Shown: positions 32,777 to 55,353, numbered from the stretch's first letter. The stretch is 64,000 nucleotides of DNA from Candidatus Tenderia sp. (GCA_031416075.1 JANOSY010000088.1:9504-73503); one strand, 5' to 3'. Notes: generated by a model from the sequence alone, not told the origin. Numbers and translations are program-made.

Positions 32777-35700
32777 ATGTCCTGCACTGTTGTAAGGGCA
32801 ATCACAGCTCTCTGTCCCGGCCCACTGGCCGGGCAGCGGGCCCCCTTACACCTTTATATAACAACCCTTCTTGGATTCCTGGTACTGCTCTGGTCAACCA
32901 CGACCCTGGCCGTCCCCCCTGGCACCATCATCAGCAACGTTGCCAGCATCAATTACACCATTGGCGGCCTACCCGGTCTGCCACTCAGCTCCAACATCGA
33001 TCAATTTACCGTGGTCGCCGCCGCCAATACGGTGGATGGCACCATGAGTGTGGCCGCGCCAGGCGGTAATCTATATGCCGGTTCGCCCCGCGCCACCACC
33101 ATCACCCTTAACAATACCGGCACCACCCTGCTGAACAATCAACAACTTACCATTACCGCACCGCTTAACAGCCAAGTAACACTGACCGGCAGTGGGGTCA
33201 CGCTGGCCGCTTCCATGAGCAGCAGCACTACCACCACCTACATTTTTAACGTGGCAGATCTACCGGTTGCTGGCAGTCAGGACCTCCAGCTGGTACTGAC
33301 CGCAGCCCCCACCGCTGTCAGCCGCCCCCAGACATTCACCGTTGCACACAGTGTTGATGGCACAACACTCCAGCAGCAATCCCTGACACTGAGCGCCTTG
33401 CCACGCACGGCGGCCAGACTGGAGATTCTGCAACACTCCCTCAGTAACAGGGCACTCTCGGCCATCGTCAATTCCACGCTGATCCGGGGGGAGAGCGGTA
33501 CCTTTACCCCCATTGCGCCGCCGACACTGCCGGAGGCACCAGACCGGCTAGTGACCGACAGCCCCATCACACTGGAGCCTGCCAACGTATTCAGTAATAT
33601 CCAGACGCTTTTTATCCGGGTCACCGATCTGGATCAAAATCTCGACAGTACGGTTCAGGAGAGTCTCGACATCACCATCAAGCTGCCCGATCGAGACGAC
33701 TATGTCACGCTGCGAATCCTCGAAACCGGCATCGCAACCGGCATCTTCAGCGGTTACGTCACCTTTGAAAAAAACAGCGCCACCAGCAGTGGCGCGCTAC
33801 CGGTCAAAAGCAATTCCAAGCTGCTGGTCAGCTATACCGATACGATCGATGGTGACGACAGTGTCGCCGAGACCGTGCTGATCGACCCCTACGGCGTGGT
33901 ATTTGACAGCGCCACCGGCCAGCCACTGGATGGTTACACCGTACAGATGGTCAACACCGATACCGGCCTGCCCGCCACGGTCTATGGCGATGACGGTGTC
34001 AGCAGCTACCCCGCCACCGTGATCACCGGCAGCCCGGTGACCGACAGCAGTGGCAACCTCTACAGCTACAATACCGGCGAGTACCGTTTTCCACTGGCCC
34101 CAGCGGGTAATTACAGACTGGTCGTCACCTCACCCAGCAGTGCCCAGTATCGCTGGCCCTCAACCCAGTCAACCGAACAACTCCATAACCTCTCCCGCAG
34201 CAACCTTGCCATCACCCTCGGCTCGCGGGGTGAGCGCTTCCCGCTGCTGCCAGGACCACCGCTGCATATTGATATTCCTGTGGATCCGCTCACCACCCAG
34301 CTCTACCTCCAGCGCAGTGCCAACCGCGAGAGTGTCGCGACGGGTGACCTGATCCGCTACAGCGTCCAGGTTGAGAACAGCACCGCCACCACCCTCAACG
34401 ATGTGGTGCTGACCGAGTCCCTGCCCCACGGTTTCCGCCTGGAGCCAGGCTCCATCAACATGGACAACAACCCGCAACAACCCGCCACCATTGAGCCACA
34501 AGGTACAACCTTCACCCTGAATCTCGGTGCCATGATCGCCGGTGAGCGCCGCCAGATCCGCTACGTCAGCGCCGTGGGTGCAGCACGCCAAGGACTGGCC
34601 AGCAGCAGTAGCCACGCCCGCGCCAACAGCGGTGCCGCCAACTCCAACCACGCCAGACACGATGCCATGGTGTTTGATGAGTTGATGCGTGGCCGCGCCC
34701 TGCTGCTCGGGCAGGTCATTATCAACCCCACCGACAACGACCCCACCCCCGCCAGCGGCTTAAAAGGGGTGCGTATCTATATGGAAGATGGCCGTTACGC
34801 CATCAGCGATGAACGGGGCATGTTCCATTTTGACAACCTCACCCCCGGCAACCATCTAGTACAGCTCGATACCGCCACCCTGCCAGACCACTATTCGCTG
34901 GTGATGGGCGACCAGGACACACGCAACGCCCACAGCCCCAGCTCGCAATTTATCGACCTGCAGGGCGGCACACTCTGGCGTACAGAGTTCCACGTTGCCC
35001 GCAAGCCCACCCCCACGGGGGCGCTATCACTGCAACTCAGCAACACCGCACCCGACAGCCAAGGCAACATCCCCTATCAGGTAACGCTGGAGAACCGGGG
35101 TGTCAGCGCCAGCAACCTGCGGTTAACACTCATGATCCCCGCCACCACCCACTACCAGCCCGGCAGCAGCCACGTTGGCGGCCACCCCGTTGGCGATCCT
35201 GATATTGTCGGCAACGTGCTCATTTATCGCCTGAACAACGACCACCCAAGCGGTGGCTGGCAACGTCAGCTCCACCTCACCCTGCAGGGCGACACTGGCA
35301 ATAGTGCCAGTGGTGACAGCCGCGAATTGACCACCAAGGCGTCACTCCAGTTTGATACCCCCGCCCAGCAGAACCAGCGCCTGCCACTGCTGCAACATAC
35401 CTTTACACTCACCACGGAACAGGTCAAACAGGGGGAACAGAAGGTCCTGGCCGAAAGCCTCACCCTCGACAACTTCAACGGCAGCAGCAATGACCTCAGC
35501 GAGGAGCATAAAACAGTCGTGCAACAGCTGGCAGAACGCTGGGCCGGCCAGGATATCCACATCCACGCCATCGGCCACAGCGACAGCCGGGACATTATTC
35601 AGAAGGAGAAGGAGGACCAGCGCCTGTTTGCCAACAACCAGATCCTCTCTGAATATCGCGCCCATGAGGTCGCTAACCAGCTCCGCCAGCAGCTCTCCCT

Positions 35701-38700
35701 GCCAGCCAACCGCATCTCCTTTGAAAGCAAAGGGGAGGACGAACCTGTCGCCAGTAATGCCACATCGGCGGGTCGAGCGACCAACCGCCGGGTAGAGCTT
35801 CATATATATAGCGTGATCAGCACCACAACCCCACATATCCACGGTACTGCCACCACCAGTGAGCGTCTGAGCAGTACCATCACCGGCCTTACACCCGGTG
35901 AACAGCCAATAACCACCGCGACCGTTACCACAACCACGGAGTACAACAGCCAGTGGCTCGCCAGCCAGACCGCCAGTATTGAGTGGCTGCTGCCCCAGGA
36001 GCGACCCGCGCTCCCCACCACCAACATCGCCATCAAACACCACAGCGACCAGAACGTCACCCTCACCCTCAATGGCCAGCCCGTGGCCGCCATGAACTTC
36101 AACGGCACCCTCAACAACAGCCATGGTGCTGCCGTCAGCCACTGGGCCGGGGTTGATCTGAACGAGGGCGACAACCTCTTTCATGCCACCATCAGCAATG
36201 CCCAAGGTGAGTTTATTCAACAACTTAACCGCAACCTGCACTACTCCAGCGCCCCCGTGCGGGCAGAGATTGTGCCAACGCTCTCCACCCTCATTGCCGA
36301 TAGCATCACCCCGCCGGTCATCGCCGTACGCCTGTATGACAAAGACAGCCACCCCATCCACGCCGGCATGGAGATTGAGTACCAAATCAGCCCACCGCAC
36401 CAGCCCGCCCAAGAGAGTTTTAATACCGACAACATGGTTGCCGCCCCTGGCAGACGCCACTACGCCACCTCCGACAATGATGGTCTCATCCTGATCAAAC
36501 TCGCCGCCACCAACAGCACCGATGATCTACGTCTGCAGCTGCCCCTGGCCCACAACCGGACCGTAGAGTTAAAGAGCCGTCTCCAGGCCAAGGCCCGCGA
36601 CTGGATACTGGTGGGGCTTGCCGAAGGGGAGGCCGGTTTTAACAGCCTGAGTGGCAATATGGAGGCGCTCGACGGCAACGCCGCCCAGGATCATCTCTAC
36701 CAGGACCAACGTATCGCCTTCTTTGCCAAAGGCCAGGTGCTGGGTAAATGGCTGCTGACCCTGGCCTACGACTCCGATAAAGCACAACCACAAAAACAGG
36801 GGAACGATCCAGCGCTGTTCCAGGCCATCGACCCCGGCAGCTACTACACCGTCTATGGTGATGCCGGTCAAAACGGTTTTGATGCCGCCAGCAGCAAAAA
36901 GCTCTACCTCAAGCTGGAGCGCAACGCCTTCTACCTGCTCTTTGGCGACTACCAGACCCAGCTCAGCGAGACCCGTCTGGCCCGCTACGACCGCACCCTG
37001 ACCGGCATAAAGTCCCGTTATCAGAATGAACAATACAACCTCATGCTCTTTATCAGCGAAAACAGCCAATCCTTTGCCAAGGATGAGCTGCGCGGCCAGG
37101 GCAGCACCGGCCCCTACCCGCTGTCACGCAGCAACGTCGCCCTCAACAGCGAAAAGGTAGTGCTGGAGGTGCGCGACCGTTTCCGCAGCGAACAGATTGT
37201 CAGCAGCACACTGCTGGCGCGCCACAGCGACTACGACATCAACTATCTGGAGGGCAACATCACCTTCCGCGAGCCGGTATTCAGCACCGATGCCAACCTC
37301 AATCCGCAATACATCGTCATCAAATATGAGTCCTACACCGGCGACAGCCAGACCACCATCGGTGGCCGGGCCGAGGTGAAGGTCAACGACCAGCTCAAGA
37401 TCGGCGTTACCCAAGTGAGTGAAGGGCGCGCTACAGGTGATGCCCTGCTCGGGGCCGCCGATCTGCAATACAAGTTCAACGATGCCACCACCCTGCGCCT
37501 TGAGACGGCCCGCAGCCTGATTGCCGACGAAGGCAGCGGCAACGCCTATCTTGCCGAAGTTGAACACCAGACCGTCAACAGCAGTAGCAAACTCTATCTG
37601 CTGGATAACGACACCCATTTTGGTCTGGGACAAACCAACGCCAGCGAAAATGGCATGTACAAACAAGGGGTTGAGACACAGCTGCGAGCCAGCGACAATA
37701 TCAACATCAAAGGCCAGCTCTACCGCCAGGAGAGCAGCCTCAGCCACGCCAGCCGTGACCTGGCCGAGGCACAGGGCGAGATCAGCCGCGGCACTACCCG
37801 GCTGCGCGCCGGCCTGCGTGAGGTGCAGGATCAGCGCGGCGACAACAGCCAGCAGCAGTCGGAACAGCTCACCACCGGCATCAGTCAACAGCTGCTGGAC
37901 AGTAAGGTGACCCTGCGGGCCGACCGCGAGATCAACCTCAACAATGGCAATGACAGCATCGACTTCCCCGACAAAACCCGGCTTGGGGCCGACTACCACA
38001 TCACCCAGAAGATCAGCCTGTTTGCCGAACAGGAGGTGGCCAACAGCGACCTCCGCGATACCCGCCAGCGCCGTCTTGGTATCAAATCAAACCCCTGGAA
38101 CGGCGCGGAGATTTACAGCGGCCTGAGCCACTCCAGCAGTGATAACGGCACTGCAACCAGCGCCAATGTCGCCGCCCGCCAGCGCTGGCAGCTCAACCCA
38201 CAGTGGAGCGTTGATGCCGGTATCGAGCAGTCCCAAACCCTAAGCCAGAATCTGAACCAGAACCAAAGCAGCGGCCCAACCCTCAGCCCACCTGCCGCCA
38301 CGCCGTTCAACCTCAACAGCGGATTTGCCATCGGCAGCAACGAAGATTTCAGCGCCGCCTCCTTGGGTGTCACCTATAGCGACAAAGGGTGGCTCTGGAG
38401 CAGCCGTGTCGAGTCGCGCACCGGTGATCTGAGTGACCGTCGCCGCCTTGCCACCTCAGTACAGACATCACCACACAACGACCTCTCCATGCTCGCCTCC
38501 CTCAACCTGCTCACCAGCAGCAGCGCCCAGGGTGAACAGCAGGATAGCTCAACGGTGCAGCTCGGGGCCGCCTACCGCCCCAGCAATAGCCGCTGGCTGC
38601 TGCTGGATAAACTGACCCTGAAAAAAGAGCGCCATAACAACAGCACCCTCGACAGCAGCGGCTGGCGCATCATCAACCTGTTCAATGCCAATTACCGAGA

Positions 38701-39073
38701 AGGGCGCTGGCAGACATCGCTGCAATACGGTGCCAAGAGTGTTAAAGAGACCATCGACGGCAACGAACATAACCAGTTTGTTGACCTCAGCGGCATCGAG
38801 AGCCGTTATGATCTAACGCCAGAGTGGGACATCGGCCTGCATGGCAACATCCTGCACGCCTGGCAGCTCAACCAATATAACTACAACAGTGGTGTCTCGG
38901 TAGGCCACACCGTGGCCAAAAACATCTGGCTGAGCCTTGGCTACAACTTCAACGGCTTCCGCGACAGCGACTTTTCGCGCAGCAGCTATACCAGTCAGGG
39001 GCTGTTCCTCCGTTTCCGGATGAAATTTGACCAAACCACCGTGAAAGAGGCGATCCAGTGGGCCAGCCAATGA
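32777..39073 (+). CDS. Giant (2098 aa) outer-membrane-associated protein: DUF11 repeats, internal OmpA-like domain, probable C-terminal beta-barrel
   Basis: One continuous ORF. DUF11-like segments include GDLIRYSVQVENSTATTLNDVVLTESLP and IPYQVTLENRGVSASNLRLTLMIP. There is an SdrD-B/CarboxypepD_reg-like segment, GVRIYMEDGRYAISDERGMFHFDNLTPGNH. The OmpA_C-like segment is IHAIGHSDSRD...NQILSEYRAHEVANQL...GRATNRRVELHIY. The last roughly 800 aa have alternating beta-strand character and end GLFLRFRMKF plus 16 aa. Confidence 0.75.
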   Translation: MSCTVVRAITALCPGPLAGQRAPLHLYITTLLGFLVLLWSTTTLAVPPGTIISNVASINYTIGGLPGLPLSSNIDQFTVVAAANTVDGTMSVAAPGGNLYAGSPRATTITLNNTGTTLLNNQQLTITAPLNSQVTLTGSGVTLAASMSSSTTTTYIFNVADLPVAGSQDLQLVLTAAPTAVSRPQTFTVAHSVDGTTLQQQSLTLSALPRTAARLEILQHSLSNRALSAIVNSTLIRGESGTFTPIAPPTLPEAPDRLVTDSPITLEPANVFSNIQTLFIRVTDLDQNLDSTVQESLDITIKLPDRDDYVTLRILETGIATGIFSGYVTFEKNSATSSGALPVKSNSKLLVSYTDTIDGDDSVAETVLIDPYGVVFDSATGQPLDGYTVQMVNTDTGLPATVYGDDGVSSYPATVITGSPVTDSSGNLYSYNTGEYRFPLAPAGNYRLVVTSPSSAQYRWPSTQSTEQLHNLSRSNLAITLGSRGERFPLLPGPPLHIDIPVDPLTTQLYLQRSANRESVATGDLIRYSVQVENSTATTLNDVVLTESLPHGFRLEPGSINMDNNPQQPATIEPQGTTFTLNLGAMIAGERRQIRYVSAVGAARQGLASSSSHARANSGAANSNHARHDAMVFDELMRGRALLLGQVIINPTDNDPTPASGLKGVRIYMEDGRYAISDERGMFHFDNLTPGNHLVQLDTATLPDHYSLVMGDQDTRNAHSPSSQFIDLQGGTLWRTEFHVARKPTPTGALSLQLSNTAPDSQGNIPYQVTLENRGVSASNLRLTLMIPATTHYQPGSSHVGGHPVGDPDIVGNVLIYRLNNDHPSGGWQRQLHLTLQGDTGNSASGDSRELTTKASLQFDTPAQQNQRLPLLQHTFTLTTEQVKQGEQKVLAESLTLDNFNGSSNDLSEEHKTVVQQLAERWAGQDIHIHAIGHSDSRDIIQKEKEDQRLFANNQILSEYRAHEVANQLRQQLSLPANRISFESKGEDEPVASNATSAGRATNRRVELHIYSVISTTTPHIHGTATTSERLSSTITGLTPGEQPITTATVTTTTEYNSQWLASQTASIEWLLPQERPALPTTNIAIKHHSDQNVTLTLNGQPVAAMNFNGTLNNSHGAAVSHWAGVDLNEGDNLFHATISNAQGEFIQQLNRNLHYSSAPVRAEIVPTLSTLIADSITPPVIAVRLYDKDSHPIHAGMEIEYQISPPHQPAQESFNTDNMVAAPGRRHYATSDNDGLILIKLAATNSTDDLRLQLPLAHNRTVELKSRLQAKARDWILVGLAEGEAGFNSLSGNMEALDGNAAQDHLYQDQRIAFFAKGQVLGKWLLTLAYDSDKAQPQKQGNDPALFQAIDPGSYYTVYGDAGQNGFDAASSKKLYLKLERNAFYLLFGDYQTQLSETRLARYDRTLTGIKSRYQNEQYNLMLFISENSQSFAKDELRGQGSTGPYPLSRSNVALNSEKVVLEVRDRFRSEQIVSSTLLARHSDYDINYLEGNITFREPVFSTDANLNPQYIVIKYESYTGDSQTTIGGRAEVKVNDQLKIGVTQVSEGRATGDALLGAADLQYKFNDATTLRLETARSLIADEGSGNAYLAEVEHQTVNSSSKLYLLDNDTHFGLGQTNASENGMYKQGVETQLRASDNINIKGQLYRQESSLSHASRDLAEAQGEISRGTTRLRAGLREVQDQRGDNSQQQSEQLTTGISQQLLDSKVTLRADREINLNNGNDSIDFPDKTRLGADYHITQKISLFAEQEVANSDLRDTRQRRLGIKSNPWNGAEIYSGLSHSSSDNGTATSANVAARQRWQLNPQWSVDAGIEQSQTLSQNLNQNQSSGPTLSPPAATPFNLNSGFAIGSNEDFSAASLGVTYSDKGWLWSSRVESRTGDLSDRRRLATSVQTSPHNDLSMLASLNLLTSSSAQGEQQDSSTVQLGAAYRPSNSRWLLLDKLTLKKERHNNSTLDSSGWRIINLFNANYREGRWQTSLQYGAKSVKETIDGNEHNQFVDLSGIESRYDLTPEWDIGLHGNILHAWQLNQYNYNSGVSVGHTVAKNIWLSLGYNFNGFRDSDFSRSSYTSQGLFLRFRMKFDQTTVKEAIQWASQ

Positions 39074-39092
39074 CAACCGCCACAACATCAAC

Positions 39093-42000
39093 ATGGACAG
39101 TACGATGAGATACGGACGTTTTATTCAGCTCTGCCTGCTGGCCACCCTGCTGCTGGTGGTACTTTTGCCTCGTCCAGGGGTAGCGGCCATCACCGCCACC
39201 ACCCTATTTGAAGGGTCAACGGATGGCGATGCCAGCGCTTATACTGGACCCTCACTCAGCCCGTCGGCCAACAACCTGATTCTCGTCTGGATAACCAATA
39301 CCCGCTCCTCCTCCCCCACCGTGCCCACCTTTACCGGTAACGGCCTCACCTGGGTGCAGGTCGCCACCGTCACCTGGGGCAGCAGCGGCTCCCCCACCGC
39401 ACGTACCACCCTGTTCCGGGCCATGGGATCCTCCCCCGCTACCGGGATCAACAGCATCGATTTTGCCGGCAATACCCAGACCGGCGTGGCGATGTCAATG
39501 ATCCAGTTCAACAACGTCGACATCACCGGCAGCAACGGTGCCAACGCCCTGGTTCAGAGTGTCACCGGCAGAACTGATAGCGCCTCCTCCACCGCCGGGC
39601 TGAGCCTCACCCTGGCAGCGCTGGGCAATGTTGCCAACGCCTCTGTGGGCGGCTTTTCCAACTTTATCAACTCCGCCACCTCCATCTCCCCAGGGTCCGG
39701 CTACACCGCCTCGTCCGGCACCACCTATCTGGCCCCCAGCATCAGCCTGCGCGCCGAGTGGAAGAGTGCGGGCAGCACCATCGTCAACGTCACACAGAGC
39801 GGTACCTCCCACATTGGCGGGATCGCCGTCGAACTCAAGGCCGACCTCTGTGCCGGCAATGTGGTCACCACCATCGCCAACAGTGGTGATGGCTCCCTGC
39901 GTGAATGTATCATCAAGGCCAACCTCAACCCCGGCACCACCATCACCTTCAACATTACCGCTGCGGCCAACCAATCTTCCGGTGCCAACTCATGGTGGCG
40001 TATCACCCCCACCACCGCGCTACCCACCATCACCGCTGCCAATACGGTGATTGATGCCACCACCCAGACCAGTAATCGTGGCAATACCAATACCCTCGGC
40101 CCGGAAGTTGAACTCAACGGTGCCACCGTCGGTGCCGGGGGGTGGGACGGTTTTGGTGTGGCTTCGCCAGCCACCGGAGTCATCATCCGCGGGTTCATCA
40201 TCAATCAGTGGTCAGGGTCAGGTATCTCACTCTGGAGCGGCAGCGGCACCATCAGGGGCAACTACATCGGTACCAACTACGCCGGTACCAGTGCCCTGGC
40301 CAATACCAGCTACGGCCTCTACCTCAATACCAATGGCAATACCGTCGGTGGCACCAGTGCTGCGGACCGTAACGTCATTGCCGGTAACGGCGGGCCTGGC
40401 ATCTACATTGTGAGCAACAGCAATACCGTGCAGGGCAACTACATCGGCGTCAACGCCAGTGCTGGGGCGATAGTTGCCAATAGTGGCCACGGCGTACAGA
40501 TACTCTCCGGTGCCACCGGCAATACCATTGGGGGCACAGCGGCGGGGGCAGGCAATGTGATTGCTGGCAACGGCGCTGATGGCATCAACCATAGTTCAAC
40601 AGGCAGCAATACCGTACAAGGCAACTACATCGGTACCAACGCCAGCAGCGCGACACTCTCTAATGGTGGCAATGGCATTGCCATCTCTGCCGGCACACTC
40701 AATGTGGGCAACGCCTCTGAATCCCAATCAAACATTATTGGCCCCAACAGTGGTGCGGGCATCAACCTGGCGGGCGGAACAGTGAATCTGGCAGGCAGTG
40801 TCACCGTGCGTGGCAACATGGCCCTGGCCAGCGGCACACTCGCCATGGGCAGCGCCACACTCAACCTCTCCGGTAACTGGAGCCGTACCAGCACCACCGT
40901 CACAACCGGCACCTCCACCGTGGTGCTCAACGGCACTGCCCTGCAGAGCCTGACCATGAACGGCAGTAACTTCAATAATCTGACCATCACCAACGGCAGT
41001 GTTGCAGGTATCAGTTTTAATGATGGTTTTAACGCCGCCAACATCACCAATACCACCCCCGCCTCCCGGCTGACCTTTAAGGCGGGCGCAACCTACACCC
41101 TCTCCGGCACCCTGACACTGGTCGGCAGCAGTGGCAACCAGATCATTCTGCTCAGCGACTCCCCCGGCACCCGCTTTACCCTGAACCCAACTGCTGGCGC
41201 GCAGAGTGTCAACTATGTCAACGTCAAGGATTCACAGGCCTCAACCAACAACATCACCGCCGATAACTCCACCAACAGTGGTGGCAATGATGATGCCGAG
41301 GCCGCACCACGCTGGGTCTTTAATGCCCCCGATACCACGCCGCCCGCCAGGATCATCGACCTGACGGTCACCTCCTCCACCACCTCATCCATCACCCTGA
41401 ACTGGACTTCACCGGGAGATGACAATAACAGTGGCACGGCTACCAGCTATGACCTGCGTTACTCCACCTCGCCCATCACGGCGGGCAACTGGGCCAGCGC
41501 CACACAGGCCGTTGGCGAACCAACACCCTTGGTGGCCGGTAGCAGCCAATCATTTAGCGTGACCGGCCTGGCCGCTGCCACCACCTACTACTTTGTAATG
41601 ACCACCAGCGATGAGGTCCCCAATACCTCCGCCCTATCTGACTCAGCGGTTGGCACCACCGGCGGCGGTGGTGGCGGCAATGTGAGCTACTACGCCAAAC
41701 GCAGTAACAGTGTCTCCATCGCCTCCGGCATCACCAGCAACAGCGGCTCCTGCGGCACAGATCCAACCGCCTACTACATTGAAGAGCTGTCAAAAAACAT
41801 CAGCGACATGTGTGTCACAGCAAATGCCTACCGCTGGGAGCAGTTGACGGCCGGCAGCTACTCGGACCACTACTTCAACACCGCCTATGTGGCCAATACC
41901 ACCGTTACCGGCGTCTCTTATCAGGTCACCATCCGCGACAGCGGAACAGTAGGTTTCCAGCTTTTTTATGTCACCTCCGGCGGTACCAAAACCTATCTTG

Positions 42001-44711
42001 GCACTGAAGTCACCCAGGTAAACAGTGGCATAGAAACCAATAACTACATCCTTAACCTCTCCGGCCAGTCTGGCACCATCCCCACCGGGGCAAAACTTGG
42101 GTTTCGTACCCGTGGTATCTCTGTCAGCCCCAGCTTCAGGATCTATGTGGGTAATCTGGATGGCAGGACACCCAGCAACCTCTCCGGTCATCTAATCGTC
42201 AACGAGGCCGTGGGCAGCAGCGATACCACCGCCCCGGCCAGTGTCACGCTCTCTACCGGTACCATCACCAACAACTCCGTGCTGCTGAACTGGGTATCAC
42301 CGGGGGATGATGGCAATACCGGCACCGCCCAGATCTACGACATCCGTTACTCCACCGCCGCCATCACGGCGGGCAACTGGGCCAGCGCCACCCAGGTAGG
42401 CGGGGAACCAACACCTCTGGTGGCGGGCACTGCCCAGACCTATACCGTGACCGGGCTGGCCCCCAATACCCTCTACTACTTTGCCATCAAAACCGGCGAC
42501 GAGACACCCAACTGGTCAGCGGTCTCCAACTCCCCCAGCGCCACCACCTACGATCCACCGGTGGGTGGCTTTAGTGTCGATAATGTGATCCCCGCCACCC
42601 AGATCAGCCAGTCCACCAACGGTTCAGGCATCATCACCATCAACTGGAAGGGGCGCGACAATCAGGCCAATAACGTCACACTCAAAACCTTTCAGTACAG
42701 CGTGGACGGTGGGGCTAGCTGGAACGCCCCCACCAACGGCGACGCCTCCGCCGCACTCTCCGCCACCTGGAGCAACAACGGCGGCAGTGGCTGGACCACC
42801 GCCACCACCTTGGCTGCCGCTCCTGTCAACAGCTTCACCTTCAATACCAAACATGCCAATGTCTCGGGGTTAAACGGGGTGGACCAGAACGATGTACGGG
42901 TCCGGTTTCTATTACGTGATGCCACTATGGATAGCCAGAGCTATGTCACCTCGACCGATTTTCGTATCGATGCCCTTGCCCCTACCGCGACCATTGGCAG
43001 CGCCATTTACGATGCTGCCAACGACCTGCTGACCATCACCGGCACCAACTTCACCACCATTGCGGCGGCCAGCACCGACATCAAAGCCTATGTCGACTGG
43101 AGCAAATTTGTCTGGGACATCAACGGCGACAACGCCACCACCACCGACATCAGCTTTGTGCTGGGTGACATCACCAGCCTGATCATCACCGACGATACCA
43201 CCATCACCCTGCAGTTCAGTGCCGCCAAAGGGATCGCCATCGAAGCCACCGCCGGCTACAGCACCACAGGCGGGGTCGACACCCTCGATGTTGCCGCCGG
43301 TTTTGCCCGAGACGACTACGGCAATGCCGCCACCACCGATGCGGTGGCCAACGGGCCACTCGTTACCACCTCGGTCTCAGGGATACTCTACGATACCGAC
43401 CGCACCACCAGCCTCGGTTTTGGCATGACGGTACGGCTACTCATCAACGGCGCCAGCATGGGCTCCACCACCACCGACGGCAGTGGTCGCTATACCTTCT
43501 GGAATAACGTCAGTGCCGGCAATGCCATTCTGGTCTACATCGACAATGGTGCCAGCACCGCCATCAGCGCCACCGTTACCGCCAACGCCAGCCTCTCGGA
43601 CTTTGATCTCTACGCCAGCCATCTGGTGGCCCGCCACGATAATGGGGGCGCACTCAGCAACGCCAACCTGGGAAGTGCCAAGGGGGCGTATGTCGACACC
43701 GATATTGTTTACTCCGTCACCGGCAGCGCGTTAACCGTCAGTGGCAGCGCCACCCGGCTACACATCCCGGCGGGCAAAAGTTTTACCCCGGAGGGCAACG
43801 TCACCACCCCGGCCATGAGTAATCTTGGCACCTTTGTCGGCGGCAGTGGTGCCATTACCATCAATGGCAACCTGAGTAACAGCGGCAGTTATACCGCCAG
43901 CAGCGCCACCACCACTGTTGCTGCTGACTTCAGCAACAGCGGTACCTTTACAGCCGCAGGCGGTACCGTGCTGCTTAACGGTATCAATCAAAACATCACG
44001 GGGACCACTACCTTCTTCAACCTGACCAAAACCGTGGCCACCGCCGACACCCTATTTTTCAGCGTCGGCTCCACCACCACCGTCACGGGTAGCGCCACCC
44101 TGCAGGGGGCATCGGGCCAGCCACTGAGTCTGCTCTCGATCACCCCCGGCAGCCGCTGGAACTTCAACATCGGCAGCAGCGCCACTAAGTCCTTCAGTTT
44201 TCTGAATGTGATCGACAGTGACGCCTCAGGCTCTGCCGCTGCCAAAAAACCGCTCATCGCCCAACCCAGCAACTCTACCGACAGCGGCAACAATGTGGAC
44301 TGGTTTGGCCTGCCCTCCATCTCGGTGATCAAATCCAGTACCCTGATATCCGACCCCGTTAACGGCACCACCAGCCCGCTGCATATCCCGGGGGCAATCC
44401 TTAACTATCAGATCCTCACCACCAACTCTGGCAACGGCTCACCCGATACCAATACCGTGGTGGTAACCGATGCACTGGACTCCAGCAAGCTTGAGTTTGA
44501 TGTCACCACCGGCATCACCTTTACCGCCAATACCTCGGGACTGACACTGGGCACAGTGAGTTATGCCCATACCGCCACCCCCACCACCTATACCTACACC
44601 CCCACCGGCCCCTACGACGCCAATGTGGCGGGCATCAAGATCACCACCAGCGGTACGTTTGCCAGCGCCGGTGCCAGCTTTACCCTCAACTTCCGCGTCC
44701 GCATAAAATAG
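39093..44711 (+). CDS. Giant (1872 aa) secreted beta-helix / FN3 / DUF11 surface protein (adhesin-like)
   Basis: Signal-like N-terminus RFIQLCLLATLLLVVLLPRPGVAA. It carries right-handed beta-helix repeats (NVIAGNGGPGIYIVSNSNTVQGNYIG, NVIAGNGADGINHSSTGSNTVQGNYIG), two FN3-like modules, and a C-terminal DUF11 domain (ISVIKSSTLISDPVNGTTSPLHIPGAILNYQILTTNSGNG). Confidence 0.75.
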   Translation: MDSTMRYGRFIQLCLLATLLLVVLLPRPGVAAITATTLFEGSTDGDASAYTGPSLSPSANNLILVWITNTRSSSPTVPTFTGNGLTWVQVATVTWGSSGSPTARTTLFRAMGSSPATGINSIDFAGNTQTGVAMSMIQFNNVDITGSNGANALVQSVTGRTDSASSTAGLSLTLAALGNVANASVGGFSNFINSATSISPGSGYTASSGTTYLAPSISLRAEWKSAGSTIVNVTQSGTSHIGGIAVELKADLCAGNVVTTIANSGDGSLRECIIKANLNPGTTITFNITAAANQSSGANSWWRITPTTALPTITAANTVIDATTQTSNRGNTNTLGPEVELNGATVGAGGWDGFGVASPATGVIIRGFIINQWSGSGISLWSGSGTIRGNYIGTNYAGTSALANTSYGLYLNTNGNTVGGTSAADRNVIAGNGGPGIYIVSNSNTVQGNYIGVNASAGAIVANSGHGVQILSGATGNTIGGTAAGAGNVIAGNGADGINHSSTGSNTVQGNYIGTNASSATLSNGGNGIAISAGTLNVGNASESQSNIIGPNSGAGINLAGGTVNLAGSVTVRGNMALASGTLAMGSATLNLSGNWSRTSTTVTTGTSTVVLNGTALQSLTMNGSNFNNLTITNGSVAGISFNDGFNAANITNTTPASRLTFKAGATYTLSGTLTLVGSSGNQIILLSDSPGTRFTLNPTAGAQSVNYVNVKDSQASTNNITADNSTNSGGNDDAEAAPRWVFNAPDTTPPARIIDLTVTSSTTSSITLNWTSPGDDNNSGTATSYDLRYSTSPITAGNWASATQAVGEPTPLVAGSSQSFSVTGLAAATTYYFVMTTSDEVPNTSALSDSAVGTTGGGGGGNVSYYAKRSNSVSIASGITSNSGSCGTDPTAYYIEELSKNISDMCVTANAYRWEQLTAGSYSDHYFNTAYVANTTVTGVSYQVTIRDSGTVGFQLFYVTSGGTKTYLGTEVTQVNSGIETNNYILNLSGQSGTIPTGAKLGFRTRGISVSPSFRIYVGNLDGRTPSNLSGHLIVNEAVGSSDTTAPASVTLSTGTITNNSVLLNWVSPGDDGNTGTAQIYDIRYSTAAITAGNWASATQVGGEPTPLVAGTAQTYTVTGLAPNTLYYFAIKTGDETPNWSAVSNSPSATTYDPPVGGFSVDNVIPATQISQSTNGSGIITINWKGRDNQANNVTLKTFQYSVDGGASWNAPTNGDASAALSATWSNNGGSGWTTATTLAAAPVNSFTFNTKHANVSGLNGVDQNDVRVRFLLRDATMDSQSYVTSTDFRIDALAPTATIGSAIYDAANDLLTITGTNFTTIAAASTDIKAYVDWSKFVWDINGDNATTTDISFVLGDITSLIITDDTTITLQFSAAKGIAIEATAGYSTTGGVDTLDVAAGFARDDYGNAATTDAVANGPLVTTSVSGILYDTDRTTSLGFGMTVRLLINGASMGSTTTDGSGRYTFWNNVSAGNAILVYIDNGASTAISATVTANASLSDFDLYASHLVARHDNGGALSNANLGSAKGAYVDTDIVYSVTGSALTVSGSATRLHIPAGKSFTPEGNVTTPAMSNLGTFVGGSGAITINGNLSNSGSYTASSATTTVAADFSNSGTFTAAGGTVLLNGINQNITGTTTFFNLTKTVATADTLFFSVGSTTTVTGSATLQGASGQPLSLLSITPGSRWNFNIGSSATKSFSFLNVIDSDASGSAAAKKPLIAQPSNSTDSGNNVDWFGLPSISVIKSSTLISDPVNGTTSPLHIPGAILNYQILTTNSGNGSPDTNTVVVTDALDSSKLEFDVTTGITFTANTSGLTLGTVSYAHTATPTTYTYTPTGPYDANVAGIKITTSGTFASAGASFTLNFRVRIK
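41331..41660 (+). repeat. FN3-like module, copy 1 (internal duplication within the 1872-aa gene)
   Basis: DTTPPARIIDLTVTSSTTSSITLNWTSPGDDNNSGTATSYDLRYSTSPITAGNWASATQ...TTYYFVMTTSDEVPN. It shares a near-identical nucleotide stretch (catcacggcgggcaactgggccagcgccac) with copy 2. Confidence 0.8.
42222..42548 (+). repeat. FN3-like module, copy 2
   Basis: DTTAPASVTLSTGTITNNSVLLNWVSPGDDGNTGTAQIYDIRYSTAAITAGNWASATQ...TLYYFAIKTGDETPN. Confidence 0.8.
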
Positions 44712-44799
44712 CCCAGATGTACATTGGGGTGGTGTCCTGAAACCGAGGCACCGCCCATGGTATGCTCTCTTCCCTTGCAACAACCCTGACCCTCTCACC

Positions 44800-46161
44800 A
44801 TGAACCATGAGATCAAACTGCCGGAACGTGATGTGCTCACCGTCTCCCGCCTGGTGCGTGAAACACGCGCCGTGCTGGAGGGAAGTTTTCCGCTGCTCTG
44901 GCTGGAGGGCGAGATCTCCAACTACTCGCGCCCCGCCTCCGGCCACCTGTACTTCTCCTTGAAGGATGAGGCGGCGCAGGTGCGTTGTGCCATGTTCCGC
45001 ACCCGCAACCTGCAACTCCGTTTTGCCCCCACCAACGGCATGCAGGTGATGGTACGGGCGCGTATCACTATGTATGAACCACGCGGCGAGTTTCAGATTG
45101 TAGTGGAGCAGATGGAAGAGGGCGGCCTGGGTCTGCTGCAACGCAACTTCGAGGCACTGAAAACCCGTCTCGGTCAGGAGGGGCTGTTCGACACCGCCCA
45201 CAAAAGGCCACTGCCGACGATGCCGCAACGGCTGGGGGTAATCACCTCCGCCACCGGGGCCGCCATTCGCGACATCATCAGCGTGCTGAAACGGCGCTAT
45301 CCGGCGCTGCCGGTGCTGATCTACCCCGTACCGGTGCAGGGCGAGTCAGCGGGTCGTGAGATCGCGGCGGCAATCAAACTCGCCAACCAACGCAAGGAGT
45401 GCGATGTGCTGATCGTCGGCCGCGGCGGCGGCTCGCTGGAGGATCTCTGGGCCTTTAATGAAGAGGTGGTGGCACGGGCTATCTACACCAGCGCCATCCC
45501 CATCATCTCCGCCGTCGGCCATGAGGTTGACTTCACTATCGCCGACTTTGTGGCCGACCTACGCGCCGCTACCCCTTCCGCCGCCGCTGAACTGGTAACG
45601 CCGGATATGGCTGAGCTGAAACAGCGCCTGATGCAACAACAGCAACGTCTGCACAATCGCATCCGCGCCACACTGCAACAGTCACAACAACGGCTCAGCT
45701 GGTTAAGCAAACGGCTACAACAACAACACCCAGGGCAACAGCTCCAGCAAAAAGGACAAAGACTTGATGAGTTGGAGCAACGTCTGTTGCAGGGCATCAA
45801 CATGCAGCTGCGGCATCGGGGCCACCAGCTCCAGCAACTCACCACACGCCTACACCACAACTCACCACGCCACCGTCTGCAACAGCTAAAAACTCACCAT
45901 AAACAGCTACAACAGCGGCTCCACCGCGCCTGGCAGTCAACGCTGAACAACAAAAAACAGCAGCTCGCCGCCACCAGCCGCGCGCTCAACAACATCAGTC
46001 CGCTGGCAACACTGGAGCGGGGTTATGCCATCGTGCAACAGCTGCCTAAACGGCAAGTAGTTCGTGATGCAACGGTGATGCAGCCGGGTGATAAAATTCA
46101 GGCTCGCTTGTCCAAAGGGGTGTTGCTCTGCACCGTTGATGAAATTAAACAAGAGGTTTAA
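44800..46161 (+). CDS. xseA: Exodeoxyribonuclease VII large subunit
   Basis: 453 aa. LTVSRLVRETRAVLEGSFPLLWLEGEISNYSRPASGHLYFSLKD and the Gln-rich coiled C-terminus are typical of XseA. Confidence 0.94.
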   Translation: MNHEIKLPERDVLTVSRLVRETRAVLEGSFPLLWLEGEISNYSRPASGHLYFSLKDEAAQVRCAMFRTRNLQLRFAPTNGMQVMVRARITMYEPRGEFQIVVEQMEEGGLGLLQRNFEALKTRLGQEGLFDTAHKRPLPTMPQRLGVITSATGAAIRDIISVLKRRYPALPVLIYPVPVQGESAGREIAAAIKLANQRKECDVLIVGRGGGSLEDLWAFNEEVVARAIYTSAIPIISAVGHEVDFTIADFVADLRAATPSAAAELVTPDMAELKQRLMQQQQRLHNRIRATLQQSQQRLSWLSKRLQQQHPGQQLQQKGQRLDELEQRLLQGINMQLRHRGHQLQQLTTRLHHNSPRHRLQQLKTHHKQLQQRLHRAWQSTLNNKKQQLAATSRALNNISPLATLERGYAIVQQLPKRQVVRDATVMQPGDKIQARLSKGVLLCTVDEIKQEV

Positions 46162-47020
46162 TCCGTTGTTATCTACCTACAAAAATCTAGCCATACTGGC
46201 ATTGGCACTGCTCTTTTCACACGGCAGCTTGGCCGTCGAACTTCCATTGCAGCAGCTTGTGCCAGGCGGCGTTGCTCTATTACCCATCGCCAATGCCACA
46301 GACAAACAGCCACAAGCCGAATACAACGGCAAACCGGTGATGGTGATCAACAGTCAGGGGCGGTGGTATGCAGTGGTGGGCATCCCACTTGATGCTGCCA
46401 TCGGGCAACAACAGATCACCGTGACGCTGGCCGACGGCAGCGATGTCACCCAGACGTTCACCGTCAGCGACAAGGCTTACGAGACCCAGCGCCTCATCAT
46501 TGCAGACAAACGCAAGGTCGAGCCCAACGAGGAGGAGATGCAACGCATCACTCAGGAGAAGGTGGAGACGGACAAGGCGCTGGCCCACTGGGGCGATGCA
46601 CTGCTGACCGACAACCTGCAACTCGACCTACCGGTAGAGGGGCGGCTCAGCAGCGCCTTCGGCCTGCGCCGCTTTTTTAATGACCAACCACGCGCACCCC
46701 ACAGCGGTCTCGACATTGCCGCACCAGAGGGAACACCAATCAAGGCCCCTGCCAACGGTCGTGTAATTTTGAGCGGTGATTTCTTTTTTAACGGCAATGG
46801 CATCTACATCGACCACGGCCAGGGATTAGTCACCATGTACTGCCACATGAGCCGCATCGACGTAAAAGAGGGGCAAGAACTAAAGCGGGGCGAAATCATC
46901 GGCGCGGTGGGCATGACCGGCCGCGCCACCGGGCCACACCTGCACTGGGGGGTTAGCCTCAACGACGCACGGGTCAACCCATCACTATTTGTACCCGCAC
47001 TGATGAACAGAGTCCCATAA
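46139..47020 (+). CDS. M23 family metallopeptidase (murein endopeptidase-like), secreted
   Basis: Signal peptide KNLAILALALLFSHGSLA. M23 motifs HSGLDIAAPEGTPIKAPANG and GPHLHWGVSLN. The start is uncertain: ATG at 46139 overlaps xseA, and a TTG at 46166 sits 9 nt after AAGAGG. The ORF track starts at 46088. Confidence 0.85.
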   Translation: MKLNKRFNPLLSTYKNLAILALALLFSHGSLAVELPLQQLVPGGVALLPIANATDKQPQAEYNGKPVMVINSQGRWYAVVGIPLDAAIGQQQITVTLADGSDVTQTFTVSDKAYETQRLIIADKRKVEPNEEEMQRITQEKVETDKALAHWGDALLTDNLQLDLPVEGRLSSAFGLRRFFNDQPRAPHSGLDIAAPEGTPIKAPANGRVILSGDFFFNGNGIYIDHGQGLVTMYCHMSRIDVKEGQELKRGEIIGAVGMTGRATGPHLHWGVSLNDARVNPSLFVPALMNRVP

Positions 47021-47058
47021 ATAGCGGGTCACAGAAGACTATCAAGGAGGCCATCACC

Positions 47059-47445
47059 ATGAACAAGATTATTGCCACGGCTGTACTACTCATCATCCTT
47101 ACGGGCTGCAGCCAAATGCCCACCACCACACATACCGGTGGCCAGATCAACCACGTTGTGCTGATCTGGCTCAAAGATGCCGGAAACCCAGAGCAGCGTC
47201 ACCAGATTATCGAAGCAACCCGCACACTGGAACAGCTACCTGGCATTATCTCTGTGCATGTTGGCGCGGTCATACCCAGTGACCGCAAAGTTGTGGATGA
47301 TAGCTTTGACATCGGCGTGCATATGCTCTTCAGCGACCGTCAGAGCATGGAACATTATGGTAACCATCCCGAACATCAACGCATTCTCAACCAGATTGTC
47401 ATGCCACTGACAGAGCGCATACTCATTTATGACTTTGCACAATGA
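47059..47445 (+). CDS. Dabb (stress-responsive alpha/beta barrel) domain lipoprotein
   Basis: 128 aa. Lipobox LLIILTGC. The Dabb-like core is INHVVLIWLKD...HVGAV...FDIGVHMLFSDRQSMEHYGNHPEH. Confidence 0.8.
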   Translation: MNKIIATAVLLIILTGCSQMPTTTHTGGQINHVVLIWLKDAGNPEQRHQIIEATRTLEQLPGIISVHVGAVIPSDRKVVDDSFDIGVHMLFSDRQSMEHYGNHPEHQRILNQIVMPLTERILIYDFAQ

Positions 47446-48004
47446 TCTGACAAACCCCCATCACCATAGTAACAATATCAACAACATGCCCTCCGCTTGT
47501 TACCGTTAATAGTTAATATAAAAACCACTTTAAAATATGGCTTTTATAATTAATGAGTATTTCAAACCACTACGACAAATAAAATAAATTTTATAAATCA
47601 TAAATACCGCAAAACAATTACCCATCACACCTGTGAAACCTCACTCAAATACCTTTATTTAACACCTGTTTTTTTCAATTAAAACAAGAACATTAATGCA
47701 CTTTTATTGTTTATTTATAACGCTAAAACAACATAAATAACCATATTAAAAAAGACTTTATTAATACCCATATATGAAAAAAATATCACTCAACACAAAC
47801 TCAATATGTTTAGCACAAAATAACTTAATGAAAATTTAAGTTTTACGGTGTAGGATAAATTTCACCCTCAGCGACATAACCAGTTATTTCTTGGAATGTT
47901 GCACTCTCGGGATCACGAGAAGAGCAGAGGGGGGAGTACTGATATTTGAATGGTTCAAATATTAGAGGACTATGATTTAAATCACATTTACTAAGGAGAT
48001 TATT

Positions 48005-48127
48005 ATGGGTGGCGGCGGCGGTATGGGCGGTGGCGGTATGGGCGGTGGCGGCGGCGGTGGTATGGGCGGCGGCGGCGGTGGCGGCATGGGCGGCGGTGGC
48101 GGCGGTGGCGGTGGCGGCGGTATGTAG
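48005..48127 (+). CDS. Micro-ORF 1: 40-aa Gly/Met-only peptide MGGGGGMGGGGMGGGGGGGMGGGGGGGMGGGGGGGGGGGM
   Basis: Hand-translated. AAGGAG at 47993-47998, a 6-nt spacer, ATG at 48005, TAG at 48125-48127. Followed by a structured 3' region and terminator. A paralogue lies at 48540. Absent from the ORF track, which shows only the antisense artefact 47843..48139. Confidence 0.6.
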   Translation: MGGGGGMGGGGMGGGGGGGMGGGGGGGMGGGGGGGGGGGM

Positions 48128-48208
48128 CTCCCGGCTCACTATGCACCCTCTCTCTCATGTGAGGGGCTCATAGCACAGTTGTAATGGCATATTGCCATGC
48201 GATGAAAT

Positions 48209-48236
48209 GGGGGGGCATTATGTCCCCCTATTTTTT
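48209..48236 (+). terminator. Rho-independent terminator of micro-ORF 1 unit
   Basis: GGGGGGGCA-tta-TGTCCCCC followed by TATTTTTT. Confidence 0.7.
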
Positions 48237-48539
48237 ATGCCAAAAAACAACACCTACCCCCTATCCTCGCCCTCCATATCCCGTGTGCTCAATAGCTTAA
48301 TTACACACAAAAAATAAATCATTTTTCCTGTGCGGAATATATTTTCTATTTCCCAACAAATTTAAGGGAAGGTTAACATACCCGATGTAGTATCGATAAC
48401 ACCTTAAACGTTGTGCCTGCTTTTTGGCTTAACGACTTCTCTGAAACTATGACGAGATAATAAGGCAGTACCGGTCTTTGAGTTATCAACGACCCAATAT
48501 AAATATCAATTACTTTTAAATAAAACTAAGGAGTTAATC

Positions 48540-48608
48540 ATGGGTGGAATGAACGGTGGTCGTGGTGGTATGGGTGGCGGCGGTGGCGGTGGTGGCGGCG
48601 GCATGTAA
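48540..48608 (+). CDS. Micro-ORF 2: 22-aa Gly/Met-rich peptide MGGMNGGRGGMGGGGGGGGGGM
   Basis: Hand-translated. AAGGAG at 48528-48533, a 6-nt spacer, ATG at 48540, TAA at 48606-48608. It has the same SD geometry, the same MGG start and the same GGM-stop end as micro-ORF 1. Confidence 0.6.
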   Translation: MGGMNGGRGGMGGGGGGGGGGM

Positions 48609-48687
48609 TATGCCCGCGTCACGCACTCCCTCTCACTATTGAGAGGCATGTTGCGTACCGCTATGGCTAACGCCATACAATAAAAAT

Positions 48688-48716
48688 GGGAGGGCATGTC
48701 TGCCTCCCATTTTTTT
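48688..48716 (+). terminator. Rho-independent terminator of micro-ORF 2 unit
   Basis: GGGAGGGCA-tgtc-TGCCTCCC followed by ATTTTTTT. Confidence 0.7.
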
Positions 48717-48800
48717 CGTCAATAATTCCCTGGCCTACGCCATTACTCGATACTCAAATAACCCACCGCCTTACCCTTCATCTCTCAAAAATTTCTTTTA

Positions 48801-52591: not shown

Positions 52592-52661
52592 CACAGACTC
52601 TCACGTAAACAATCCCTGCACACAACGCCGGTCAGCAACAACCGGAACCCGCCTGATACCA

Positions 52662-52686
52662 TAAAAAAAGGGGCCAATGGCCCCTT
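52662..52686 (-). terminator. Rho-independent terminator after pnp
   Basis: The minus strand reads GGGGCC-att-GGCCCC followed by TTTTTTTAT. Confidence 0.75.
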
Positions 52687-52715
52687 TCTTATATCAAACC
52701 CACGTTAAGAGGTAC

Positions 52716-54806: not shown

Positions 54807-54895
54807 TAACTATCCTTAAAATTTCTTATGGGGTATTTAACAAAGATCCAAAAATGATCGGATTCTGGATCAACGCACTGCGGGCATAGCAACAG

Positions 54896-54944
54896 AAACA
54901 GACCGCCCCGCACATCCTTCGATGTTACGCAGGGCAGTCTGTTT
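54896..54944 (-). terminator. Long hairpin between rpsO and pnp (rpsO terminator / pnp leader processing stem)
   Basis: The minus strand reads AAACAGAC...GTCTGTTT with GC-rich internal pairing, followed by CTGTT. Its position is equivalent to the RNase III-processed hairpin of the E. coli rpsO-pnp leader. Confidence 0.55.
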
Positions 54945-54964
54945 AATCCAGCTCGGCATTCCGC

Positions 54965-55234
54965 TTAGCGGCGCAGACCAAGACGGGTGATCAATTCACG
55001 GTAACGATCCTGATCTTTCTTTTTCAGGTAGTCGAGCAACTTACGACGCTGACTAACCATTCTCAAAAGACCCTGACGTGAGTGATGGTCATGAGAGTGT
55101 TTCTTAAAATGACCAGAAAGCTGATCGATACGAGCGCTCAACAGCGCAACCTGAACTTCAGGAGATCCAGTATCCCCTGTGGCACGCTGAAAATCACCAA
55201 CGACTTTCTGCTTAGCTTCTGCATTCAAAGACAT
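54965..55234 (-). CDS. rpsO: 30S ribosomal protein S15
   Basis: [57 protein letters not shown]. The start at 55234 gives 89 aa. Confidence 0.96.
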
Positions 55235-55353
55235 GTTATCTCCCAAATAGACACTACTAACTCAATAAGCGGCGTATTTTACAACCGCATCAAGCCCGGT
55301 ACAAGCACGGAATTGGCCAATTCTCCTCTTAAAAGGCAGATTAGGCAATAATC

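Follow-up and report, generated by a model that had tools for sequence, protein, structure and literature searches.

A putative giant outer-membrane barrel protein with an internal OmpA-like domain, and its partner genes, in Candidatus Tenderia

Candidatus Tenderia sp. encodes a 2098-residue protein, here called C, in a 64,000-nucleotide stretch of DNA (GCA_031416075.1 JANOSY010000088.1:9504-73503; the window). The open reading frame (ORF) covers 32777-39073 (+), and gene callers report the same protein on an identical public contig. C is composed of a signal peptide, a short N-terminal tag, a stalk of beta-sandwich domains, an OmpA-like domain, two immunoglobulin (Ig)-like domains, and a long meander of antiparallel strands. 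It lies in an operon with three further genes, A, B, and D. We place at about even the chance that C serves an undescribed multi-protein surface-fiber or cargo-display system as its conduit and anchor in the outer membrane. The operon context, absent from a preliminary description of this DNA, is the main clue to the function of C.

The OmpA-like peptidoglycan-binding domain is located at 35447..35806 (+), residues 891-1010, and is recognized by Pfam, NCBIfam, the AlphaFold2 (AF2) model, and motif alignment. The preliminary description had read an internal OmpA-like segment in this 2098-residue ORF, and the ORF, the Pfam match, and the AF2 fold all confirm it. Residues 900-1004 score 40.3 bits with PF00691 (cut-off 27.2). 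In NCBIfam the segment aligns best to TssL-type anchors (TIGR03350, E 1.3e-22), and AF2 gives residues 894-1010 the alpha/beta fold of OmpA C-terminal domains. The motifs GH[ST]D, LSxxRA, and NRRVE are present in an alignment to TssL1 and OprF, and H934, S958, R961, A962, N1003, and R1005 are invariant among 31 homologs. By prediction, the segment looks like a functional peptidoglycan binder, and it must be periplasmic. An internal OmpA domain is not an oddity of this gene, as had been supposed. The trait is family-wide though optional: 42 of 63 full-length loci and 105 of 171 complete homologs have the domain. About one third of homologs lack it, so that it is best described as an optional insert, with a constant place between stalk and C-terminal module.

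The final 1088 residues of C (1011-2098) have no sequence match in Pfam, NCBIfam, or the PDB. AF2 was run on the two halves of C separately, using alignments of 31-36 homologs. The C-terminal half has a predicted local distance difference test score (pLDDT) of 76 and a predicted template modeling score (pTM) of 0.60. The barrel-like meander occupies 36908..39028 (+), residues 1378-2084, contains approximately 34-36 confident antiparallel strands, and ends in GLFLRFRMKF. The strand count of the model is estimated at 34-36 confident strands and possibly 38-40. A barrel start near residue 1270 had been proposed; in the AF2 model the confident barrel begins near residue 1378.

The barrel-like strand periodicity first noticed in the distal part is borne out, since the strands alternate in hydrophobicity in a dyad pattern and neighboring strands co-evolve. 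Co-evolution was assessed by mean-field direct coupling analysis (DCA) on a 324-sequence alignment with a 10-letter alphabet. For nearly all strands in residues 1510-2047, the best antiparallel co-evolving partner is the sequence neighbor (z 3-10). Three C homologs carry a precomputed match to PF13505, an outer-membrane beta-barrel family. In Foldseek, the top matches are the largest sheets and barrels known. Template modeling (TM) scores are at most 0.26 for bacterial barrels except MtrB (0.31), and those of SprA are 0.18 and 0.10. As modeled, the C-terminal meander of at least 34 strands resembles outer-membrane barrels only, and none of them closely.

Several elements surround or interrupt the meander. 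The two Ig-like domains (35981..36580 (+), residues 1069-1268) lie between the OmpA-like domain and the barrel, have strands with pLDDT 80-92, and carry the motif ADGxTxPVIAxRLxDxDGxP in the family consensus. The most conserved segment of C follows (36599..36904 (+), residues 1275-1376). It reads WILVGLAEG..AFFAKG..WLLTxAYDS, with invariant residues and pLDDT 32-48. Within it, a hairpin of 1274-1286 with 1306-1320 co-evolves (z 5.0/5.9), and residues 1354-1362 pair with 1483-1491 (z 5.9). This segment may add further barrel strands or a plug. A small beta domain is located between two barrel strands at 37094..37303 (+), residues 1440-1509. It is read as an inserted domain because strand 1420-1439 co-evolves with 1510-1535 (z 7.1).

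Of the features expected of a closed outer-membrane barrel, C shows the meander, the dyad pattern, and a terminal F, which here is followed by a 14-residue tail; pairing of the first and last strands, which would close the barrel, is not detected. The terminal motif GLFLRFRMKF stands as first described (residues 2075-2084, nt 38999-39028), and the extension after it is 14 residues long, not 16. This conserved tail (39029..39070 (+)) has the sequence DQTTVKEAIQWASQ, with a family consensus of FRxKFDQxSVKxAxxW, and is modeled as a helix at low pLDDT.

The N-terminal half of C has pLDDT 82 and is modeled as a helix, a low-confidence stretch (residues 39-72), approximately six confident beta-sandwiches between residues 88 and 878, and a compact alpha/beta domain. 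The signal peptide is of Sec type and spans residues 1-45 (32777..32911 (+)), with cleavage between STTTLA and VPPGT, just before 32912. AF2 places a hydrophobic helix at residues 21-38. Homologs of C have AxA-type cleavage sites immediately N-terminal of the tag. The tag of C (32912..33016 (+), residues 46-80) reads G-T-I-I-S-N-V-A-S-I-N-Y ... S-N-x3-F-x-V and is common to B.

The stalk (33029..35416 (+), residues 85-880) is made up of approximately six beta-sandwich domains of CnaA/CLIPPER, transthyretin-like, and SdrD-B-like types. Pfam matches are CarboxypepD_reg (373-458), DUF11 (510-603), and a weak SdrD_B (660-713), in agreement with the DUF11/SdrD-B-like region first placed before OmpA. 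Assignment to CLIPPER/DUF11 (PF01345) rests on a profile match above cut-off together with a CnaA-like fold. Module types of this kind are described from cell-surface stalks (PMC12617251). Fibrillar adhesins and the pilins of Gram-positive bacteria contain such Ig-like domains. Indirectly, surface exposure of the stalk is favored by these extracellular module types, by stalk length variation of more than 1000 residues, and by the one third of homologs that have no wall anchor. C has an extra beta-sandwich straight after the tag (residues ~85-210, 33029-33400), as in P0012. Most C homologs are without this post-tag domain, and their consensus runs from the S-N element directly to R-T. The extra domain is an example of stalk module gain.

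Gene A (31010..31492 (+)) encodes a secreted protein of 160 residues with a single CLIPPER/DUF11-like domain (Pfam DUF11, E 2.6e-8) and no tag. It terminates exactly at a beta-strand (..GSVNFHALVR). The 160-residue version is the one called on the identical contig, and AAGGAG is found 8 nt 5' of its ATG. Gene B (31710..32771 (+)) encodes a secreted protein of 353 residues. Its start, too, is the one called on the identical contig. It contains a tag homologous to the N-terminus of C (residues 30-64, nt 31797-31901 (+)), an Ig-like domain in the middle, and at the C-terminus a CLIPPER-like domain (residues 227-353, nt 32388-32768 (+)). Gene D (39093..44711 (+)) encodes a secreted protein of 1872 residues with parallel-beta-helix-like repeats, fn3, and Pur_ac_phosph_N, and without a tag. 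Its last 131 residues (nt 44316-44708 (+)) are homologous to the C-terminal domain of B. The N-terminal 250 residues of D have no family match, and its central NxIxGNxxxGI-type repeats are typical of parallel beta-helices. NCBIfam gives D a weak match to the calcium-activated chloride channel family (hCaCC), in the fn3 region only.

The association of these genes is conserved. Fifty-two loci extend far enough upstream for the other genes to be scored; all 52 have A, 50 have B, and 27 have a second B-like gene. C always comes after A and B, which encode small, pilin-like proteins, and large D-type proteins are often adjacent. The A-B-C order is also observed in a Geobacter relative and in another gammaproteobacterium (loci L001 and L002). 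A, B, C, and D are the only genes of the operon, and Pfam annotation of the window, L001, and L002 shows no gene for a PapD-like chaperone and no sortase domain. A, B, and D each end in a beta-strand, with neither LPXTG nor a hydrophobic tail. A literature search found no published description of the A-B-C operon.

Two modules link the proteins. One is the C-terminal domain, here termed the acceptor. The C-termini of B and D (last 125-131 residues) are homologous to the final residue (32% identity, E 4e-10). A hidden Markov model (HMM) of the domain matches 192 ORFs other than C in the fetched loci, and in all but one (191) the match lies at the extreme C-terminus. Carriers are A, B, and many proteins of 600-1700 residues. 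The other module is the tag. In their mature form, B and C have homologous N-termini (33% identity, E 2e-6), and in both the tag, G-T-x-I-x-N-x-A-x-V-x-Y and then S-N-x3-F-x-V, directly follows the signal-peptidase site. A strict regular expression detects it in 48 of 58 C homologs, the remainder being variants, and G49, N54, and A56 of C are at least 90% conserved. Among partners, the tag is common in B-size proteins (79 of 98) and rare in those of D size (1 of 39) and A size (5 of 55). The distribution of tag and acceptor thus defines three classes: acceptor only (A, D-type), both (B), and tag only (C).

At its last residue the acceptor domain reaches only position 84 of the 114 positions in the DUF11 profile. 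The Lys of its first strand is retained by 68 of 72 sequences and an Asp by 90 of 95, and no conserved Asn is found within partner C-terminal domains. The A family is without the Lys and has NPxP where TDxLP otherwise stands. By spacing, the acceptor Lys and Asp correspond to Lys-715 and Asp-748 of 9IFR, both part of the CLIPPER isopeptide triad reported for that structure (PMC12617251). The joint between acceptor and tag may be covalently locked, since Lys and Asp are kept in the acceptor and an Asn is near-invariant in the tag. An intramolecular isopeptide via N334 of B was considered and rejected, as the position is not conserved in the family.

The tag of C has pLDDT 41-59 and no confident docking in cis in the AF2 model. 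Two points speak for pairing in trans: the C tag is undocked in cis, and C has a tag without an acceptor where A and D have an acceptor without a tag. In DCA of the B family (211 sequences), the tag strand ranks second among the partners of the Lys-bearing first strand of the C-terminal domain, and vice versa (z 2.5 and 2.3), a result in which cis and trans contacts are inseparable for a homopolymer. DCA on the N-terminal region of C is uninformative at an effective sequence number of 55. The best PDB match of the B C-terminal domain is AbpX of Pyrodictium abyssi (9sj2, 9rhp; E 0.0024). AbpX polymerizes by N-terminal donor-strand complementation. Homology to AbpX is not claimed, for the match spans only a generic PGA..Y.I..N.G strand pair.

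These features suggest how the system could work. The barrel of C would form a wide conduit in the outer membrane. The OmpA-like and two Ig-like domains would remain periplasmic and fasten the assembly to the cell wall, and the N-terminal stalk would pass outward through the barrel, where its tag could hold partner proteins. The C-terminal domain of a partner would stop after the sixth or seventh CLIPPER strand, and a tag would supply the missing strands. The two-strand tag of B or C would then complete the truncated acceptor of the next protein in the chain (A, B, or D-type). A chain would run from a tip (A or D, acceptor only) through copies of B (tag and acceptor) to C (tag only, the anchor). 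A spontaneous Lys-Asn isopeptide between chains would amount to a natural SpyTag/SpyCatcher. Joining of subunits by strand complementation is possible, though it falls short of probable, and a covalent isopeptide lock at the joint is doubtful. Equally tentative is the composite proposal of a sortase-free, chaperone-free diderm system with a split CLIPPER, a Lys-Asn intermolecular lock, and a 34-40-strand single-chain exporter and anchor.

A number of results weigh against this reading. DCA does not detect pairing between the first and last strands of the meander, and closure of the C barrel is thus not demonstrated. The peptidoglycan tether and the very large barrel of the preliminary description are otherwise supported, by the OmpA motifs and by the alternating hydrophobicity and co-evolving neighbors of the strands. 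The strongest single DCA couplings of the B tag point to the middle domain of B, so the tag could simply belong to that domain in cis. The tag resembles the last two strands of the DUF11 consensus; its tentative equation with CLIPPER strands 8-9, and of its Asn with Asn-806 of 9IFR, is based on that consensus and on published residue spacings rather than on an alignment with 9IFR. When a tag was appended to an acceptor, the DUF11 match extended from position 65-79 to 96-98 and gained 1.5-8 bits. This chimera test failed its control, as shuffled or reversed tags scored 38.3, 41.5, and 38.6 bits against 41.8 for the real tag. Composition therefore explains the gain, and the test is rejected as evidence. 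An HMM of the DUF11 tail of C itself barely separates real tags from shuffles (median ~0 against -2 to -3 bits), and a PDB sequence search with the chimera did not retrieve 9IFR. The operon encodes neither a chaperone nor an energy source. If the stalk fills the barrel lumen, the exit route for partner proteins is unexplained.

The family of C is large. With the C-terminal 1088 residues as query, exhaustive phmmer searching matched 1363 clusters (50% identity) at E<=1e-30 and 3503 at E<=1e-3. The module is C-terminal in every match listed, in proteins of up to ~3000 residues. A word-indexed search found 291 homologs of C, a subset of them without OmpA. Homologs with the same domain order, for which a search had been suggested, thus exist; most of the 291 are 1900-2100 residues long and have the same Pfam set. 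Complete homologs range from 1490 to 2608 residues. A scan of species-representative genomes places relatives of C in at least 510 species. Taxa include Gamma-, Beta-, and Zetaproteobacteria, Desulfobacterota, Nitrospirota, Lentisphaerota, Verrucomicrobiota, and Krumholzibacteriota, among them sulfate reducers, Geobacter relatives, Nitrospirota, and sulfur-oxidizing gammaproteobacteria. Cultured hosts are Povalibacter uvarum DSM 26723, Desulfatibacillum alkenivorans DSM 16219, and Geomobilimonas luticola.

Other readings of C differ in what the barrel exports and where the stalk lies. C could be a translocon like that of the type IX secretion system (T9SS), in which the giant barrel exports folded A, B, and D-type cargo recognized via the shared C-terminal beta-sandwich. 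The N-terminal region would then be a peptidoglycan-tethered periplasmic receptor or gate, and the tag a docking element and not a donor strand. Cargo of this kind would account for a domain that sits at the extreme C-terminus of 191 of 192 otherwise unrelated partner ORFs of 160 to 1700 residues. The barrel and SprA are of one size class, Foldseek lists SprA among its top matches (probability 1.0), and OmpA adjoins the barrel on the periplasmic side. However, SprA has low TM-scores (0.18 and 0.10) and no sequence similarity to C, and no PorV, PorU, or PorLM-like genes or motor are found in the operon (window, L001, and L002). Restriction of the tag to B and C is also left unexplained, as is the variable number of isopeptide-type adhesin modules in the stalk, and we consider this reading rather unlikely. 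Less probable again is a self-contained adhesin resembling an autotransporter, where C exports its own stalk, OmpA anchors it to the wall, and A, B, and D are merely co-regulated surface proteins. C does have the classical polarity of N-terminal passenger and C-terminal barrel, and its stalk modules are typical of fibrillar adhesins. Yet type V export needs only 12 strands, against at least 34 here, and no Pfam autotransporter match is found in C. A and B accompany C in 50 of 52 loci across phyla, and the N-terminal homology of B and C, together with the shared C-terminal domains, implies physical coupling.

Two further alternatives are less likely still. The first topology of the preliminary description kept the entire N-terminal region in the periplasm as a peptidoglycan-bound scaffold, with the barrel as a large pore or outer-membrane anchor. 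OmpA domains are periplasmic, and the simplest topology keeps everything before the first barrel strand in that compartment. GfcD/YjbH, with a mid-chain peptidoglycan-binding domain before a C-terminal barrel, provides a precedent (PMC8346858). The chance of such a tether or channel is nevertheless small. N-terminal regions differ by more than 1000 residues among homologs, and the longest, by estimate, would not fit in extended form into a periplasm of ~25-30 nm. In one third of homologs there is no OmpA domain at all, and the types of domain in the stalk are otherwise those of extracellular stalks. That the C-terminal region is a soluble or open beta-sheet and not a membrane barrel is very improbable. 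Consistent with such a sheet, closure is not detected by co-evolution, the Foldseek top match is the open beta-belt of ApoB100, and pTM is only 0.60. Soluble beta-sandwich repeats, named earlier as the structure prediction that would speak against a barrel, are not what AF2 gave; the model has more than 30 antiparallel strands reaching residue 2082.

The four-gene cluster sits between guaB (guaBA, 27333-30444 (-)) and xseA (44800-46161 (+)). The same placement is repeated in the gammaproteobacterial L002, which suggests a conserved insertion site in one lineage and not a mobile island; L001 and L084 have different flanks. GC content is ~0.59-0.61 over the B-D genes (32000-46000), compared with 0.48-0.51 downstream of xseA (46001-56000). 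Upstream, at 16-30 kb, it is ~0.55-0.59, and the composition of the window is mosaic. An 812-residue ORF (24825-27263 (-)), among housekeeping genes upstream of guaA, has no Pfam match at E<=1e-5. The longest ORF of an M23 peptidase (46088-47020 (+)) overlaps the end of xseA by 74 nt, and its true start is probably further downstream. The coordinates first given for the features of C were essentially right and needed small corrections only.

The spacers within the operon are unequal. A and B are separated by 217 nt here, and often by 60-240 nt elsewhere, compared with 5 nt between B and C and 19 nt between C and D. With its long spacer, A could be differentially expressed. RNA folding of the A-B spacer (31493-31709) is unremarkable (z -0.84), the leader and this spacer have no Rfam match, and a promoter and terminator scan is at background. 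The leader 5' of A is AT-rich and 565 bp long (30445-31009). A perfect 13-bp palindrome, GTCACATTGTGAC, occupies 30583-30595 within it, and there is a further TGTGACAC at ~30686. The palindrome is a candidate and may be a regulator binding site. In the Steroidobacteraceae/Povalibacter loci L042, L045, L048, L049, L058, and L079, a protein of ~860 residues has the same C-terminal domain (..NPYFEVRFRVRVN). Its gene, at ~1.4-4.2 kb of these loci (- strand), is divergent and lies upstream of the operon, so cargo genes are not always co-directional.

If the proposed role of C is correct, it represents a previously unrecognized way to build or anchor surface fibers across the outer membrane, in more than 1000 sequence clusters and many environmental phyla. 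The C family would add one of the largest single-chain barrels. SprA is still named the largest known barrel, and the AlphaFold database is without uncurated models above 1280 residues (2026 preprint), so surveys of that database have probably missed the C family. Natural split-domain ligation, if true, would be of interest to protein engineers. On the most cautious reading, C is a clean, testable case of a peptidoglycan anchor combined with a giant barrel.

Individual features of C are found in several described proteins. The fibrillar adhesin B9T28_05395 of Acinetobacter silvestris has CLIPPER/DUF11 modules and an OmpA-like anchor (PMC12617251; PDB 9IFR). There, OmpA is C-terminal and no barrel is described, whereas in C approximately 1090 residues, including the barrel, follow OmpA. 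GfcD, unlike C, has an N-terminal barrel in place of a stalk and belongs to capsule operons. Barrel families of 34, 38, and 40 strands were predicted from sequence by Solan et al. 2021 (PMC8346858). Sulfolobus threads (PMC9715654) and SpyTag/SpyCatcher would be alike in strand complementation, and in pairing Lys plus an acid with an Asn partner, if the inference made here holds. Those systems are archaeal, monoderm, or engineered and have no outer-membrane barrel. Sortase-assembled pili have LPXTG on their subunits and a sortase gene, and neither was found here.

Type V secretion systems resemble C in combining an outer-membrane barrel and a stalk of Ig domains in a single chain. In intimin, an inverse autotransporter, a peptidoglycan-binding domain adjoins the barrel, as in C, though it is LysM there and OmpA here. 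The barrel of C is about three times larger, its partner genes are obligatory, and extra folded domains are present between the putative passenger and the barrel. C was rejected as a classical autotransporter (type Va, PF03797, 12 strands), with no Pfam match in residues 1011-2098 and at least 34 predicted strands. It was likewise rejected as an inverse autotransporter (type Ve, N-terminal barrel, LysM), because the order of stalk, OmpA, and barrel is reversed and no corresponding Pfam match is found. The inverse-autotransporter-like layout offered in the preliminary description is thus abandoned, for the barrel of C is C-terminal and far above 12 strands.

SprA, the 36-strand translocon of T9SS, is of the same barrel size class as C, in a protein of ~2000 residues or more. 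T9SS cargo, too, is made up of diverse proteins with a common beta-sandwich at the extreme C-terminus. In contrast, SprA and C have no sequence similarity (TM 0.10-0.18), no other T9SS components are adjacent, and the C family occurs in Pseudomonadota, Desulfobacterota, Nitrospirota, and others rather than in Bacteroidota. Neither homology or fold identity with SprA nor co-occurrence with PorV was found, and C is not assigned to this family.

Chaperone-usher pili (FimD/PapC) also have small Ig-fold subunit genes, followed by one large outer-membrane barrel gene with periplasmic beta-sandwiches. Their subunits are joined by an N-terminal donor strand, and the usher has 24 strands with a plug. 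As in the C system, the subunits fall into those with an N-terminal extension (polymerizing subunits) and those that lack one (the tip adhesin). A large tip-type protein with a C-terminal pilin-like domain is a further likeness, and no ATP source is needed. C has no match to the usher family (PF00577, PapC N- and C-terminal domains) and was rejected as a member. The pattern of tags and C-terminal domains would fit usher-type completion of an incomplete fold; however, the chimera test failed its control, and the DCA signal is weak (z ~2.4). By analogy, C would functionally most resemble an usher that doubles as an anchor, or a SprA-like translocon for C-terminal-domain cargo.

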